A stretch of 43,377 nt of DNA, taken from assembly GCA_964422785.1 (NCBI GenBank), contig CAYRCJ010000001.1, positions 1 to 43,377 on the forward strand, in the 5' to 3' direction. Made by a program: the position numbers and the translations under genes. Every line of letters starts with the position of its first letter. The first letter of the stretch is position 1. This document shows, in pieces, positions 2,693 to 37,729 of the stretch. This stretch comes from an uncultured Candidatus Saccharibacteria bacterium (GTDB lineage Bacteria > Patescibacteriota > Minisyncoccia > UBA11713 > 2-01-FULL-45-33). Below the pieces are notes generated by a model. It saw nothing but the letters and a program-made list of their open reading frames with translations. It was not told where the DNA came from and did no database searches.

Positions 2693-3452
2693 CGTCAGTG
2701 AATATTACCAGCCTTTGGCTATAGCTTAATTTGTCCGGATTCCATGCGCCTTCACAGGTAATAAGATTAAGATGAACGCCGCCGTCTCCGGATCTAAAAA
2801 CATCAGCGGCGTCCGCCGCCGGATCGTAACTGCGGATCTCACGGACCATGAAGGTGATGAACGCTCCTTTGTCGTTTAAAATATAGAGAGTGTCCCCCGG
2901 GCGCAATTCGTTTAAATTACTAAACACACCGAGTTTTGTTAATACGCCTCCTCGTATCTGGGCAACATGTCCGGTGACGATGGCGTTGCCTTTTTCTCCG
3001 GGGTGCGGACTGCCCGTAAACCATCCCACGTCAAAAATATTGTTCGGTATTTCCATTGTTCCATCGGATTTGAGGCCATTGTATTGGAAGCTTGCGTCGA
3101 TTGCGAGCTTTGGAATTTTTAGACGCACCGGCAGGCCAGTGGGCTGGGTGGTAGATCCGTTTTCGCTCTTTAAAATGGCTATACTTGTGGGGCCGAAAAA
3201 ACCGCTTGAATAGATGCCAACTTTTGCTTGCCATACCCGAAGCGCTTCCTTCGTAAGTGGACCGAAGTAGCCGGTTGGGGCAACAATTTTTAGAAAACCG
3301 CCTTCAATTAAAAACTGCTGCAGGGCGGATACCTCATCTCCATGAATTCCGATTGTAAGATTATGCGTGAATGTAAAACTTTTGGCGCTATTTCCGGCCG
3401 CAGAAACAGAGATCAACAACCCAAAGAGCCATATTTTATTTGATATTTTCAT
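2685..3452 (-). CDS. Sortase-family transpeptidase fused to an N-terminal peptidoglycan-binding (PG_binding_1-like) domain
   Basis: A signal/anchor segment is followed by GDEVSALQQFLIEGGFL...GYFGPLTKEALRVWQ (PG_binding_1 pattern). The sortase core follows: AIVTGHV, LNLITCEG and RLVIF. The core is a clear paralog of 2087..2692. Confidence 0.85.
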   Translation of the reverse strand: MKISNKIWLFGLLISVSAAGNSAKSFTFTHNLTIGIHGDEVSALQQFLIEGGFLKIVAPTGYFGPLTKEALRVWQAKVGIYSSGFFGPTSIAILKSENGSTTQPTGLPVRLKIPKLAIDASFQYNGLKSDGTMEIPNNIFDVGWFTGSPHPGEKGNAIVTGHVAQIRGGVLTKLGVFSNLNELRPGDTLYILNDKGAFITFMVREIRSYDPAADAADVFRSGDGGVHLNLITCEGAWNPDKLSYSQRLVIFTDAI

Positions 3453-12647: not shown

Positions 12648-12666
12648 GTTATCCACATAAATGGCT

Positions 12667-12695
12667 TTGCACGTATATAAAGCGGGATTTATAAT
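12667..12695 (+). promoter_or_regulatory. Candidate promoter giving a ~380-nt leader for the large surface-protein gene (or driving a separate sRNA)
   Basis: TTGCAC (12667-12672), a 17-nt spacer, then a perfect TATAAT (12690-12695). No credible ORF lies between here and 13080. Confidence 0.4.
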
Positions 12696-13079
12696 GAAAT
12701 TAAGCTCAAATGCGAATATCTGAATTGTGTGAAATAATTAGTTAAGTAGGCCAAGGTTTTGGCCAACTTGTTGGCTTATGACGACTGGGAGTTAAATAAA
12801 AAATAGCTGCCGGTCGCCAGAAGCTAATGAAATATTTTCTGGCAAGAAAGAACTTTGAAAATTAAAAAACATCTGATTCATTCTAAGTTTAAGCGTATTT
12901 AATTTGTAATAACTGAGGAGTTTAAGTCGGGTCGAATTTGCTCCAACTAAAAAGAGCAAAAACGATTTTGCTCCATTGATCAAGTAGAATTAATTATTAG
13001 GTTTAGTTTCAAAACCAACTAAAAACGTTTTGTCGAAATTCTTTTTAGTTGGATAAATTATTAAAAGAGAATTTAAAAT

Positions 13080-27171: not shown

Positions 27172-27190
27172 AAAATTTTCATCAATTTGA

Positions 27191-27220
27191 CAAAATAGCG
27201 CAAAAGCGCTATTTTGTTTT
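27191..27220 (+). terminator. rpoC terminator
   Basis: aaaatagcgc aaaa gcgctatttt (a 10-bp stem) followed by gttttt. Confidence 0.75.
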
Positions 27221-27231
27221 TGGAGGTGAAA

Positions 27232-27453
27232 ATGTCCGATTCTTTGCTTGATGAATCGCAAGTTCATGAGACAACAATTACGGAATTGATTGGGCATTAT
27301 GGAAGAGATATTGACCACGCTGAGATACGCAAAGTCTATCAGGAAACTCGCGAAAGGCACGAAGCCGAAGCCAGAATAAAAAGTTTTCTACCCGTCATAA
27401 TTAAGCGAGAGGTCAAAAAAATTCTTTCAGCCAAAAGGAGCACAAGATGTTAA
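27232..27453 (+). CDS. Small (73-aa) hypothetical protein
   Basis: The SD ggaggtg lies 5 nt upstream of ATG 27232, which I prefer over the track start at 27214. The C-terminal motif ARIKSFLPVIIKREVKKIL weakly recalls actinobacterial three-helix-bundle dimerization domain proteins (..IRDFVPLLVER..). That is memory-level similarity only. Confidence 0.45.
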   Translation: MSDSLLDESQVHETTITELIGHYGRDIDHAEIRKVYQETRERHEAEARIKSFLPVIIKREVKKILSAKRSTRC

Positions 27454-27478
27454 AAAGCCCCCGTCGGGGCTTTTTTTG
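27452..27478 (+). terminator. Rho-independent terminator
   Basis: aaaaagcccc cgtc ggggc followed by ttttttt. Confidence 0.7.
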
Positions 27479-27562
27479 CGCCTATTTTTGTCTACTTGAC
27501 GTTCTTTTTCAAGCAATATAGCCTTAAAGATAGATAAGTCTCTTCTTTGAAAAGGAACCAGT

Positions 27563-32938: not shown

Positions 32939-32953
32939 AACTTCACACATTGC

Positions 32954-32985
32954 CAAAATAGCATCTTTATGCTATTTTGTTTTTA
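32954..32985 (+). terminator. ftsK terminator
   Basis: aaaatagcat cttt atgctatttt (a 10-bp stem) followed by gttttt. Confidence 0.75.
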
Positions 32986-33006
32986 GATTGAAAAAGGAGG
33001 CTAGGC

Positions 33007-33288
33007 ATGGAATTTGTGGTGTGGATTTTTGCTATAATTTTAGGAGTTTTTGGCGGGTATTTTTTGTCTTCAGCTCTCATAATAGCGCTAAGTGTTTTTG
33101 CAATCGCTCTTCTGATTTACATATATCGGTGTCCAAATTGGGCCGCTTTCTTTGCGCTTCTGGCGGGAGCTCATATCGCATTGCCGATTTTTCTAATTTC
33201 CATATGGATTGTGGGGATCATTGTCCGCATACCGCCGGATGCTTTTAACTTTCACGCGGAAGCTTTGAAAAGTCTGTTTTTGAGATAA
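33007..33288 (+). CDS. Small (93-aa) polytopic membrane protein, unknown function
   Basis: A strong SD aaggagg lies 6 nt upstream. There are three hydrophobic segments. The overlapping 32988 ORF lacks an SD. Confidence 0.5.
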   Translation: MEFVVWIFAIILGVFGGYFLSSALIIALSVFAIALLIYIYRCPNWAAFFALLAGAHIALPIFLISIWIVGIIVRIPPDAFNFHAEALKSLFLR

Positions 33289-33299
33289 GGAGGCCCGAG

Positions 33300-33419
33300 A
33301 TGATTTTTAGGATTTTTCTTTTCGCGCTGGGATTTGTATTCGCCTACTTCCTTCCAATACCCATGTTGATTCTGTTGGCGTTGTCCACCCTTTTTATTTT
33401 TTTTATTATTTATCGCTAA
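33300..33419 (+). CDS. Possible 39-aa hydrophobic peptide (below the ORF-track cutoff)
   Basis: The SD aaggagg lies 6 nt upstream of ATG 33300. The translation is MIFRIFLFALGFVFAYFLPIPMLILLALSTLFIFFIIYR*. Confidence 0.35.
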   Translation: MIFRIFLFALGFVFAYFLPIPMLILLALSTLFIFFIIYR

Positions 33420-33434
33420 AACAAAGGGGGCGTG

Positions 33435-33990: not shown

Positions 33991-34311
33991 ATGCCAAAGA
34001 AGATAACTGATCAGGTAATGATTTCTGTTGACGATTTAATAAAAGTTGATGGCGAGAACGGCATTGAGGTGTATGTGGTCAGAGGGATCGAGAAATCAGC
34101 GGCTCTAGGCAATCGCATTAACTATGTGGATTATGCAGCCAGATCCAATGCGTGTTATCAGGTGGACCTTATGAATCTGGGAGCTGAAGTAATTTCTGGT
34201 CTTGAGCTGATTCGTCTTTTCATGGATACACAAGAAGAATTGCGTAAGCACGAGGCGGAAGCGATCGAGCGCGCGAGAAAAGAAGATAGTTCCGGCGGAA
34301 AATTTTCGTAA
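33991..34311 (+). CDS. Hypothetical 106-aa protein
   Basis: The SD aaggagg lies upstream, 1 nt after the previous stop. I recognise no family. Confidence 0.5.
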   Translation: MPKKITDQVMISVDDLIKVDGENGIEVYVVRGIEKSAALGNRINYVDYAARSNACYQVDLMNLGAEVISGLELIRLFMDTQEELRKHEAEAIERARKEDSSGGKFS

Positions 34312-34942: not shown

Positions 34943-36385
34943 ATGGAATATCAAGGCACAATCGGGCTTGAAATCCACTCCGAACTTCGCACAAAAACGA
35001 AGATGTTTTGCGGCTCAAAAAACGATTCCAATGAGCGTCATCCCAATATTAATATCTGCCCCGTCTGCATGGGGCATCCGGGTACGTTGCCGGTTATAAA
35101 CGAAGAGGCGGTGCGCCATGTTCAGCGTGTTGGGCTGGCGCTTGGCGGCCAGGTGCAGAAATTTTCTCAATTTGACCGCAAGAATTATTTTTATCCGGAT
35201 CTGCCCAAGGGATATCAAATTTCTCAATACCAGCATCCTTTGGTTTTTGGAGGCGAGCTTAAGGGGGTAAGAATAACCAGAGTGCATTTGGAGGAAGATA
35301 CGGCCAGACTCTCACATGAAGGAAGCTCCGACGCGAAGTCGGAGCGACCAGCTTCGCTGGTCGACTTCAACCGAGCCGGAGTTCCTTTGATGGAATTGGT
35401 TACCGAGCCTGATTTTCGGGACGCCAAAACAGCGAGAGAATTTTGCGAAGAACTTCAGCTTGTTTTGCAATATTTAGGGGCGTCATACGCGAATATGGAA
35501 AAAGGGGAGATGCGATGCGAAGCAAACATATCACTAAACATGGGAACAAAAGTTGAAATAAAAAATCTCAATTCTTTTCGGGCGGTTGAAAAAGCCATTG
35601 AATACGAGATTGAACGCCAAAAAAGATTGTTGGAGAGCGGCGAAAAAGTTCACCAGGAAACCAGGGGGTGGGACGAAGACAAAGAAATTACTTTTTCGCA
35701 GAGAAAAAAGGAATCAGCCCACGACTATCGTTATTTCCCTGAGCCGGATTTGCCCCCGTTTAATTTCGACGACAAATACATAGAGTCTCTAAGGGCGACC
35801 ATTCCCGAACTTCCCTGGCAAAAAAGAAAGAGATTGATTGAGGAATACAAAATTCCTGTTCATATGGCTGAAATTTTGGTTAGAGAAAAGGCGCTTTCTT
35901 CTTTTTGGGAGGAGACAGTTTCCGAACTTAAGGAGTGGGAAGATCCTGAAAAGTTTGAAGAAGGAATGAAGCTGGCTGTAAATTATTTTACCTCCGATCT
36001 TTTTGGTTTGATAAAAGAAAAGGAAATACCGATATCGGAACTTTTGGTGGACCCGGAAAACTTCGCGGAACTCATCAAAATGATCTCAAACAAAGAAATT
36101 TCTTCCCGCGCGGCCAAAGATGTTTTGATCCATATGGTAGAAGTCGGGGGAGACCCGTCAACCATTGTAAAAGATAAAGGACTTGCTATGGTAAGCGACG
36201 AAAAATCGCTCGAGGAAATGGCCAAACGGATAATATCCGAAAATCCTAAAGCAATTGAGGACTACAAAAAAGGAAAACAAAATTCTATCCAATTTTTGGT
36301 GGGACAAATGATGAAAGAAACCAAGGGGGCGGCGAGTCCGGAGCTTGCCCGAACCCTCTTGACAAAACTAATAGAAAGAGTATAA
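34943..36385 (+). CDS. gatB: Asp-tRNA(Asn)/Glu-tRNA(Gln) amidotransferase subunit B
   Basis: GLEIH.EL.TKTKMFC, ICPVCMGHPGTLPV, HLEEDTA..., SLVDFNRAGVPLMELVTEPD and a C-terminal GatB/YqeY domain (QFLVGQMMKETKGAASP). Confidence 0.95.
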   Translation: MEYQGTIGLEIHSELRTKTKMFCGSKNDSNERHPNINICPVCMGHPGTLPVINEEAVRHVQRVGLALGGQVQKFSQFDRKNYFYPDLPKGYQISQYQHPLVFGGELKGVRITRVHLEEDTARLSHEGSSDAKSERPASLVDFNRAGVPLMELVTEPDFRDAKTAREFCEELQLVLQYLGASYANMEKGEMRCEANISLNMGTKVEIKNLNSFRAVEKAIEYEIERQKRLLESGEKVHQETRGWDEDKEITFSQRKKESAHDYRYFPEPDLPPFNFDDKYIESLRATIPELPWQKRKRLIEEYKIPVHMAEILVREKALSSFWEETVSELKEWEDPEKFEEGMKLAVNYFTSDLFGLIKEKEIPISELLVDPENFAELIKMISNKEISSRAAKDVLIHMVEVGGDPSTIVKDKGLAMVSDEKSLEEMAKRIISENPKAIEDYKKGKQNSIQFLVGQMMKETKGAASPELARTLLTKLIERV

Positions 36386-36386
36386 T
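36359..36386 (+). promoter_or_regulatory. Perfect-consensus sigma70 promoter at the very 3' end of gatB, pointing into a noncoding region
   Basis: TTGACA (36359-36364), a 16-nt spacer, then TATAAT (36381-36386, containing the gatB TAA stop). The predicted TSS is around 36392-36394 (GG). Confidence 0.5.
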
Positions 36387-36392
36387 GAAAAG

Positions 36393-36686
36393 GCGAGATG
36401 CGCGGCTGGCGGAAGGTCCGCTATGCTGGCCATCAAACGGGGAACGCCGCAGAAGGGTGACGCCGATGACGGGTCGGCGCTTCACGGAAGCGGAGTTCCC
36501 CACCGCACTTTTAAATTCAAAAATTTTTGTCCGTATAGATTACTGAATAACTGGTTTGTAGTAGTCCATCTGTATTGGACAGTCTAATGGTGTTGGCCAG
36601 TTATGTCACAATCTAGCAGAGCTTAAAGATCCTCCTTCTAGTCTCCGATTGGAGACGGGCTCTGTTTCAAAATAAACAGCCTTAGC
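36393..36686 (+). ncRNA. Candidate structured noncoding RNA, family unassigned
   Basis: It lies in a 333-bp gap between convergent genes, bounded by the consensus promoter and a terminator. Positions 36401-36510 are 67% GC (74/110, counted), whereas 36511-36690 are 38% GC. A rod-like fold is possible: GGGGAAC/GUUCCCC, CCGC/GCGG and GUGACGCCG/CGGCG(CU)UCAC. Further hairpins are gtctcc gatt ggagac and ctgttt caaaat aaacag. A possible long-range pairing joins 36413-36432 with 36594-36624. Confidence 0.35.
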
Positions 36687-36718
36687 AAAAAAGGGCGCCG
36701 AAAACCGGCGCCCTTTTC
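36687..36718. terminator. Bidirectional terminator (miaA on the minus strand, candidate ncRNA on the plus strand)
   Basis: gggcgccg aaaac cggcgccc (an 8-bp GC stem), flanked by aaaaaa and ttttctc. Confidence 0.75.
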
Positions 36719-37729
36719 TCATATTTTTAACAACTTCATCGCTTCTTTTTCTTTCGAAACCCAGTGAATGTCTTTATTTTTTTTAAACCAAGTCATTTGC
36801 CTTTTGGCGTAGTGGTTTATTTCGGTTTCCAGTTTTTCTATCATAGTTTTTTTATCTATTTTTTTGCGGATAAATGAAGAGATATAGCGATATTCCAAAC
36901 CAAGATCATATAGACGTTTCCATGTTAGGCCAGCCCTTGGCTGGTGGGCCTTGGGCCCAAGTTTTTTTATTTCTTTAATAATCCCCGGCAGCCGTTTAAT
37001 TAATCTTTTGTGTATTCTTTTTTTGAGCCCTTCTTTGGATTTTTTGATCCCTAGCCAGAGTGCGCTCTGGCTAACCAATGAAGCCTCCTCACTCATTCTC
37101 GGCCGTCCAGCGACGGCCTCCGAGGATTTCGCGCCTTTTTGCCCCTCGCTTCGCTCGGGTACCATGCCAAAAAGGCCGAAAAACCCGTTCGGAGGCTCAT
37201 TGGTTATCCCTCCCTTCTTGCCTTTCGCAATCTCAATAGCCCTCACCAATCTCACAGGATTTTTGGCATCAATATTTTTTGCTCTTTCTGGATTTATTTT
37301 CTTTAAAATTTTAAACAGTTCTTTCACAGATTTTTTGGCCAATTTTTTCCGAAGTGCCTGATTTGGGGGAGTGCATGCGGTATCGATTTTCCCCAGCGCC
37401 ACATCGATATAAAAACCGGTACCACCGACAACAATCGGGATTTTATTTTTTTTGTATATTTTATCCGCAGCTTCATTGAAACATTTTTTGAAATCTTGGG
37501 CCGTGAAAATTTTCTCGGGATCGGCCACGTCCAGGCAATAATGCGGGATGCCGCGCATTTCCTTTTTTGTAATTTTTCCGGAGCCGATATCTAGGCCCTT
37601 GTATACCTGGCGCGAATCCGCGGAGATTATTTCCCCGCCGATTTTTTTGGCGATTTTAACAGCCAAATCAGATTTGCCCGAGGCAGTGGGTCCGACCACA
37701 ACTACCATTTTTTTATTGTTTGACAGCAT
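36719..37729 (-). CDS. miaA: tRNA dimethylallyltransferase (carrying an internal ~45-aa insertion)
   Basis: The P-loop is VVVGPTASGKSDLA. Also present are ISADSRQVYKGLDIGSGK, IPIVVGGTGFYI, LGLEYRY and AKRQMTWFKK. Confidence 0.9.
   Translation of the reverse strand: MLSNNKKMVVVVGPTASGKSDLAVKIAKKIGGEIISADSRQVYKGLDIGSGKITKKEMRGIPHYCLDVADPEKIFTAQDFKKCFNEAADKIYKKNKIPIVVGGTGFYIDVALGKIDTACTPPNQALRKKLAKKSVKELFKILKKINPERAKNIDAKNPVRLVRAIEIAKGKKGGITNEPPNGFFGLFGMVPERSEGQKGAKSSEAVAGRPRMSEEASLVSQSALWLGIKKSKEGLKKRIHKRLIKRLPGIIKEIKKLGPKAHQPRAGLTWKRLYDLGLEYRYISSFIRKKIDKKTMIEKLETEINHYAKRQMTWFKKNKDIHWVSKEKEAMKLLKI
37072..37206. repeat. 135-bp GC-rich element flanked by inverted repeats, embedded in frame in miaA
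   Basis: The terminal inverted repeat is taaccaatgaagcctcc (37072-37088) / ggaggctcattggtta (37191-37206), 16 bp with one bulge. The length is 135 nt, or 45 codons. GC is 57% (77/135, counted), and the flanking miaA is visibly AT-rich. Internal hairpins are ggccgtc cagc gacggcc, gcctttttg..caaaaaggc and ccgaa aaacccg ttcgg. Confidence 0.5.

Follow-up and report, generated by a model that had tools for sequence, protein, structure and literature searches.

Enterobacterial small RNAs of the 3' untranslated region (3' UTR) type, such as DapZ and MicL, have their own promoter within the upstream open reading frame (ORF), start at about its stop codon and use the terminator of the mRNA. RsaE and RoxS, two regulatory RNAs of Firmicutes, pair with Shine-Dalgarno (SD) sequences via C-rich loops. 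We have analyzed the gap between the convergent genes gatB and miaA in a 43,377-nt stretch of DNA (contig CAYRCJ010000001.1, positions 1 to 43,377; in the following, the window), for which a preliminary description had proposed an unassigned structured RNA. Judged by sequence comparison, the window comes from a candidate-phyla-radiation (CPR) bacterium near Candidatus Giovannonibacteria; its GatB protein has at most 74–75% identity to any protein in the collections searched, and the best-named relatives are metagenome-assembled genomes of Giovannonibacteria.

As in DapZ and MicL, the promoter of the window locus lies in the 3' end of a coding gene, gatB, the predicted start is near the stop codon and the intrinsic terminator is that of the mRNA, a likeness drawn at the level of sequence. 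There is, however, no homology in sequence or structure, i.e., the DapZ model of Rfam scored 24 bits against a cut-off of 56, matched the terminator only and did so on the opposite strand. Moreover, the RNA of the window, with about 300 nt in two domains, greatly exceeds them in size and in degree of structure, and its host is a CPR bacterium, where Hfq-type chaperones are not established. With RsaE and RoxS it has in common a conserved, exposed C/U-rich loop, AUCCUCCUU, predicted to be complementary to GGAGG. In contrast to them it has one such loop and not several, many genes of the window have no SD sequence, and no homology was found. 6S RNA (RF00013) is likewise driven by a promoter, bounded by a terminator, presumably abundant and a few hundred nucleotides long, with ends that may pair. 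The fold of the window RNA, however, is multi-branched in both the minimum free energy (MFE) and the centroid prediction instead of a rod with a central bubble; no Rfam match to 6S RNA exists, and length and architecture vary widely among relatives.

The sequences of promoter and terminator, the fold, its conservation and covariation, the strand, the missing coding potential and the absence from Rfam are shown by the sequences of the window and its relatives. We consider it likely that the locus is a stand-alone gene on the + strand whose product is a structured non-coding RNA about 300 nt long, with action in trans via an exposed loop as the most likely mode. The RNA matches no described family and is neither RNase P RNA nor 5S rRNA. 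Together with its relatives it forms, as far as sequence comparison tells, a new lineage-specific, fast-evolving and modular set of putative RNAs at the gatB slot in a subclade of Candidatus Giovannonibacteria. The preliminary description had left the choice between a highly divergent stable RNA and a new one, and the conserved promoter and the compensatory pairs support the second. In the window, the gene order is efp (−), gatB (+, 34943–36385), the gap, miaA (−, 36719–37729) and a thrS-like gene, and the convergent gatB/miaA layout is also present in relatives. The features of the locus are the following, compared where possible with the related gatB locus L161.

36359–36386, + strand: sigma-70 consensus promoter, −35 TTGACA, 16-nt spacer, −10 TATAAT, 12/12 match, within the last nine gatB codons and the stop
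36392–36394, + strand: transcription start predicted from promoter geometry, a purine 6–8 nt past the −10
36397–36434, + strand: 5' hairpin GAUG..CAUC with apical GGCGGA-AGG-UCCGCU, carries GGAAGGUCC, in MFE and centroid structures
36439–36501, + strand: GC-rich hairpin C, basal stem of 12 pairs, asymmetric purine-rich internal loop AGAAGG/GGAA, upper stem with CU bulge, conserved 3' strand GAAGCGG
36503–36531, + strand: single-stranded linker, CCGCACUUUUAAAU and then an A/U-rich spacer, which parts the two domains and is conserved in relatives
36536–36615, + strand: helix H1, UAGAUU..AAUCUA plus AAUAACUGGUU..GGCCAGUUAU, 16/16 pairs kept in L161, two by two-sided and five by one-sided changes
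36616–36665, + strand: helix H2, GCAGAGCUU..GGGCUCUGU, encloses two small hairpins, 17/17 pairs kept in L161, six by two-sided changes
36629–36637, + strand: 9-nt loop AUCCUCCUU, anti-SD-like, closed by A-U/G-C pairs, 8/9 bases identical in L161
36641–36656, + strand: hairpin GUCUCC-GAUU-GGAGAC, two-sided changes at 3/6 pairs in L161 (GUUCC..GGAAC)
36666–36688, + strand: conserved 3' tail UUCAAAAUAAACAGCCUUAGCAA, near-identical in L161, whose ACA-GCCUU can pair with AAGGC at 36390–36394
36689–36717, both strands: two-way intrinsic terminator common to the RNA (+) and miaA (−), 12-bp stem with eight G-C pairs, U-runs on both strands

The promoter overlaps the final gatB codons L-T-K-L-I-E-R-V-stop. 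It is the only perfect consensus promoter in the window, where 0.02 are expected and 2 of 100 shuffles reach one, in agreement with the perfect TTGACA-16-TATAAT that the preliminary description had placed on the gatB stop. The gatB loci for comparison were obtained from genomes and metagenomes and by looking up exact proteins. In one subclade, GatB has a three-residue C-terminal extension (...LT[KRE]xxxxV-stop, with the ends ..xGV or ..xRV). The Leu-Thr codons, for which 24 synonymous spellings are possible, read TTGACA in all 17 distinct related loci with this tail (18/18 including the window), and GTATAAT, formed by the last codons and the stop at a 16-nt spacing, was found in 15 of the 17 (16/18 including the window). 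GatB identity among the tail-bearing loci is only about 60–75%, at which synonymous sites should be scrambled. We therefore see in the invariant TTGACA strong evidence, from sequence comparison, for selection on the embedded promoter as a DNA signal. The three-residue tail exists only where its codons spell the −10 hexamer, which likewise points to selection on the DNA and suggests that the protein tail is a by-product of the embedded promoter. At the other end of the gap, the terminator at 36689–36717 is the only one between gatB and miaA and adjoins miaA; the GC-clamp terminator noted before was hence found again.

Two tail-bearing loci, L002 (4579–4660) and L174 (3080–3135), keep a perfect embedded promoter followed by only about 35 nt, i.e., the terminator hairpin, before miaA. 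Here the RNA looks to have been lost and the promoter retained. In L003 (4490–4750) and L005 (4420–5320), where GatB is without the tail, small ORFs are present downstream of gatB instead of an RNA; they are preceded by TGnTATAAT-like or TTGACA/TATAAA-like promoters.

The 3' domain carries the comparative evidence for the fold. With nhmmer, its sequence (36509–36688) could be aligned to the corresponding position in L161 (E=1.8e-13). RNAalifold of the window against L161 gave 33 pairs, all of which are kept, eight by two-sided and six by one-sided (wobble) changes, so that 100% of the cells are paired. When the partners were slid by 1–3 columns as a control, 33–48% remained paired with at most one two-sided change, and among 500 shuffles one reached the observed values. 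At least eight positions of this domain form G-U pairs that would be C-A on the opposite strand, and the RNA can hence be assigned to the + strand. The energy of the 5' domain is in line with this strand, at −61.3 kcal/mol on + versus −49.2 kcal/mol on −, i.e., 12 kcal/mol better. The closing pair of the AUCCUCCUU loop switches from A-U to G-C in L161; the loop itself is complementary to GGAGG and resembles the 3' tail of 16S rRNA. Within H1, the apical hairpin at 36564–36580 is a window-specific insertion absent from L161. This hairpin and that at 36641–36656 are the two clean hairpins that had been described for the last 180 nt or so. Of the long-range pairings proposed with them, 36413–36423 with 36614–36624 and 36426–36432 with 36594–36600, neither occurs in the MFE or in the comparative structure; 36594–36600 pairs locally instead, and L161 is entirely without the 5' partner. 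A different closing helix, AAGGC/GCCUU, is present in both MFE and centroid structures.

In composition, the RNA falls into a GC-rich part with 67.8% GC over 36393–36507 and a second part with 38.1% over 36508–36688, compared with 43.9% for the window; the earlier figures of 67% and 38% were thus reproduced. Against shuffled sequences, the whole RNA folds with z=−4.2 without and z=−5.9 with the terminator. The GC-rich part contains hairpin C (−37.5 kcal/mol, z=−3.95), which had been drawn on paper as GGGGAAC/GUUCCCC, CCGC/GCGG and GUGA..UCAC with the CU bulge and which is the MFE and centroid structure. As a hairpin, the 'rod' of the preliminary description is real; it is, however, one module of a two-domain RNA and not the whole RNA. 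Hairpin C has homologues in L168 (blastn, E=0.002) and L165, at the corresponding place in both. They have the same architecture (z=−4.0 to −5.1) with a similar purine-rich asymmetric loop and an invariant GAAGCGG 3' strand, and the basal stem stays paired via C-G to A-U, A-U to G-C and wobble changes. A covariance model of hairpin C (R2) matched only its three training sequences, and for a reading of the hairpin as a group II intron domain V or a K-turn, Rfam gives no support. The apical AA(A/G)GUCC-like element of the 5' hairpin recurs in the 5' hairpins of L001, L004, L082 and L090, a likeness at the motif level only.

L161 is wholly without the GC-rich 5' block and keeps promoter and 3' domain; the two domains are hence separable. 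The linker between them contains CGCACUUUUAAAU, which is invariant in L163, L164, L168 and L170 and reads GGCACUUUUGAAAG in L161.

Most tail-bearing loci have a GC-rich, strongly folding non-coding stretch of 166–459 nt before miaA or before an inserted gene. Neither nhmmer nor blastn retrieved a homologue of the region from the first 80 gatB loci; homologues were found by reading the syntenic gaps by eye and adding further contigs. The comparison with related genomes that had been suggested for this locus thus yielded L161 with nhmmer and L168 with blastn. We distinguish type I (L163, L164, L168, L170, L172), type II (L081, L086, L165, L166), type III (L001, L004, L082, L090, L173) and the type of the window, i.e., the window and L161. 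The window locus lies in the defining slot, which extends from the gatB stop to the convergent miaA, and downstream of an embedded TTGACA-N16-TATAAT. Compensatory changes affect 17 of the 60 consensus pairs in the type I RNA and five of the 12 pairs in the 5' module of types I and II. When the window, type III loci and about 90 further gatB loci were searched with a covariance model of this 5' module (R1), no match was significant, and the model does not detect the window 5' hairpin at 36397–36434. Two scans of viral contigs with conserved motifs of 14–16 nt returned scattered single matches only and no recognizable family member.

In its outer layout, the 5' module of types I and II corresponds to s2m (RF00164), an element of coronaviruses and astroviruses, with a 5-bp stem, CGAG, GCC...GGU, ACA and the closing strand. 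In L086 (3078–3138), the s2m score was 21.6 bits, below the cut-off of 50 (E=0.026 when 421 nt were searched), the match covered the outer stem and loop only, and the same outer layout is present in L081, L163–L166, L168 and L170. The interior, however, is 36 nt long and unrelated, compared with 18 nt in the model, and the s2m core GAGUA(C/A)GAUCGAGGGUACAG was not found at the 50-bit cut-off. The window has no s2m match and no such local hairpin, only AAGGC-GAG and ACA-GCCUU 280 nt apart. The likeness to s2m is possibly a shared three-dimensional loop motif and not family membership.

Further observations concern the surroundings of these relatives. In type I loci L164 (3477–4052), L168 (3570–4151) and L170 (3511–4128), a gene of 191–205 amino acids (aa) lies between the RNA and miaA; it has PaaX_M matches, and weak or faint Cas2 matches in L164 and L168. 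In L090, the stretch 3125–3185, after the RNA, has a T-arm-like GUCGGUGCAAGUCCGAUACC, where ARAGORN calls no tRNA. L088 and L089 have GC-rich blocks downstream of gatB, at a place similar to that of the GC-rich miaA insertion of the window (see below).

Among the alternatives, a structured 3' UTR of gatB that acts only in cis, by exonuclease protection or by insulating gatB from miaA, and whose promoter is a codon by-product, survives best, and we regard it as unlikely. It would account for an RNA that begins at the gatB stop and ends at a terminator common with miaA, and also for the promoter-like codons that L002 and L174 keep without an RNA. On the other hand, codon usage alone would not explain one spelling out of 24 in 17 of 17 loci together with the GTATAAT stop context and a tail confined to loci that spell the −10. 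A mere terminator spacer, moreover, needs neither 33 kept pairs with eight compensatory changes nor conserved loops, and close relatives manage with gatB-miaA gaps of 40–75 nt.

Quite unlikely in our view is non-functional filler, i.e., GC-rich hairpin insertions of selfish or slippage origin beside the terminator. The extreme plasticity of the gatB-downstream RNA among relatives would fit this explanation, as would a second GC-rich block (z=−5.0), in frame in miaA 350 nt away and variable among relatives. However, no repeat copies were found in the window, hairpin C is orthologously placed in L165 and L168, where its loop sequence is conserved and its stems are compensated, and the strongest covariation is in the 3' domain, which is AT-rich and not GC-rich.

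A divergent housekeeping RNA (RNase P RNA, 5S rRNA, signal recognition particle (SRP) RNA, 6S RNA or transfer-messenger RNA (tmRNA)) that the Rfam models have missed is very improbable. At the locus, the strings GGAAGGUCC, AAGGGUGA, CCCCACC and UAGAUUACUGAAUAACUGG stand in the order of the conserved regions CR-I to CR-IV of RNase P RNA (RF00010/RF00011) and a further stretch is 5S-like, as had been pointed out before; the RNA also resembles RNase P RNA in its size, in the low range, and in a strong promoter, here of consensus strength. Rfam 15 at gathering thresholds, however, gave no match in the whole window nor in eight relatives. When 36300–36780 (481 nt) was scanned with cmscan at E≤10, the Rfam check proposed in the preliminary description, 26 weak matches were obtained, all at 36641–36780 on or beside the terminator and none in 36387–36640. 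All are far below their cut-offs, including the terminator-only matches to STnc320, STnc40 and DapZ at 36689–36717, and none is to RNase P, 5S, SRP, 6S, tmRNA or an intron. The same permissive search on loci of the three other types (L001, L086, L168) returned terminator look-alikes and the one sub-threshold s2m only, and ARAGORN, run on the window and on seven related loci, found neither tRNA nor tmRNA. The literature on non-coding RNAs of CPR bacteria and Parcubacteria, on RNase P in Patescibacteria and on bacterial s2m yielded nothing relevant.

The individual candidates were rejected on these and on structural grounds. For RNase P RNA, no covariance model matched (type A/B, archaeal, nuclear), and the CR-I-like GGAAGGUCC is the apical loop of the local hairpin 36397–36434. 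The P4 helix is formed by CR-I (GGAAAGUCC) and CR-V (ACAGAAnCCGGCUUA), and the sequence has no CR-V-like string or partner. Moreover, the strings are not conserved among homologues, and L161 is without the 5' block that bears three of the four. For 5S rRNA, there was no RF00001 match at E≤10, and 36439–36501 folds as a single hairpin and not as a three-way junction with loop E. SRP RNA, 6S RNA and tmRNA were dropped with the negative Rfam and ARAGORN searches. L161 does without the 5' block, and L002 and L174 do without any RNA at the locus; a loss of the latter kind would be intolerable for an essential RNA unless another copy exists. Sizes, moreover, vary from 166 to 459 nt.

Equally improbable is a small protein, since the ORFs that exist at the locus (53 aa at 36385–36546, 54 aa at 36423–36587 and 20 aa from the ATG at 36398), in a genome that appears to use leaderless mRNAs with an ATG few bases past the −10, have no counterpart in L161, L165, L168, L081 or L001, the ATG of the 53-aa ORF at 36385 falls inside the −10 hexamer, the alignment with L161 has indels of 16 nt and 1 nt, neither a multiple of three, and the substitutions are pair-compensating and not codon-periodic.

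Other features of the window were recorded alongside. The gatB-miaA gap of 333 bp had been called very large for this genome; it is only the fourth in the window, where gaps of 493, 432 and 391 bp exceed it. Of these larger gaps, 12648–13079 and 27172–27562 fold with moderate scores against shuffles (z=−3.3 and −3.8), and 32939–33431 gave z=−0.6. Terminators are present in 12648–13079 and 27172–27562, and small ORFs below 100 aa with SD and ATG in 27172–27562 and 32939–33431. None of the repeats within the window involves the gatB-miaA locus, i.e., there is no multicopy element here. The first 17 nt past the −10 (36387–36403) are identical to the gatB codons for MEKGEMR of other species and differ from gatB of the window itself (35499–35515) by three mismatches. 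We considered the RNA 5' end as a gatB fragment; the similarity stops after 18 nt and was judged to be chance. In miaA (− strand), an in-frame GC-rich insertion (0.60–0.63) lies at 37050–37200, which MiaA of L165 and L166 is without and which is longer in L161; its mRNA fold has z=−5.0, and it is flanked by the inverted repeat CCAAUGAGCCUCC / GGAGGCUUCAUUGG.

Many genes of the window have a TATAAT-like hexamer 5–8 nt before the ATG and no SD sequence, e.g., at 34943 (gatB), 34917 (efp, −), 40423 (−), 3475 and 5684, which suggests that leaderless mRNAs are widespread in this genome. A clear GGAGG is present in a minority of genes, e.g., at 33991 and 19416.

For the stand-alone RNA gene we propose the following course. 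Transcription would start at the sigma-70 consensus promoter in the last gatB codons and end at the two-way terminator common with miaA. The transcript is predicted to fold into a 5' domain (about 36393–36507), with a small hairpin and a long one whose internal loop is asymmetric and rich in purines, and a 3' domain (36532–36688) of two compound helices, one of which would present the AUCCUCCUU loop; the A/U-rich single-stranded linker with CGCACUUUUAAAU would join both and may be cleaved to yield two RNAs. The RNA probably acts in trans by base-pairing or protein binding, and its likeliest contact site may be the exposed C/U-rich AUCCUCCUU loop, which could pair with GGAGG SD-like sequences. 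More specifically, that it pairs in trans with SD regions, or binds a protein that recognizes such sequences, we put forward tentatively as one possibility.

Several points weigh against the proposed RNA gene. Transcription start, 3' end and abundance of the RNA are all predictions. The 5' strand of the closing helix lies only 4–8 nt past the −10 and possibly outside the transcript; the predicted closing helices AAGGC/GCCUU and, by analogy with type I, AAAAG/CUUUU use bases 2–8 nt past the −10 that may be untranscribed. The 3' domain is common to one relative (L161) and hairpin C to two, i.e., the covariation rests on very few sequences. L002 and L174 have the promoter and only about 35 nt to the terminator, and the promoter alone is hence no proof of a functional RNA. 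Covariance models of one type miss the other types, so that 'one family' rests on position, promoter and short motifs; sequence homology is supported between particular members only, i.e., of the window with L161 by its 3' domain and with L168 and L165, the linker motif being common with type I. Finally, many mRNAs here look leaderless, which would leave fewer possible targets for an anti-SD-like loop.

In the uncultivated CPR bacteria, genomes are tiny and many of the classical regulators are missing, and to our knowledge almost nothing is known of their non-coding RNAs. The gatB slot offers a concrete RNA gene with a defined promoter and terminator, a fold and a handful of homologues. It also shows clearly how a promoter can lie in the codons for the C-terminus of an essential protein, GatB, which it apparently lengthens, and how a structured RNA at one fixed site in the genome can turn over very fast, one module at a time. 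A further-reaching idea, which we consider improbable, is that the gatB-downstream RNAs are an abundant CPR-specific class of large RNAs built from exchangeable modules that mimic rRNA surfaces, i.e., the s2m-like kinked loop (types I and II), purine-rich internal loops and the anti-SD-like loop (window type), and that their targets are the translation apparatus or SD-led mRNAs. If true, ultra-small bacteria with mostly leaderless mRNAs would possess a new principle of riboregulation. Should groundwater metatranscriptomes contain the RNA in abundance, it would offer a good way into riboregulation in these organisms and would justify a new family in the RNA databases.

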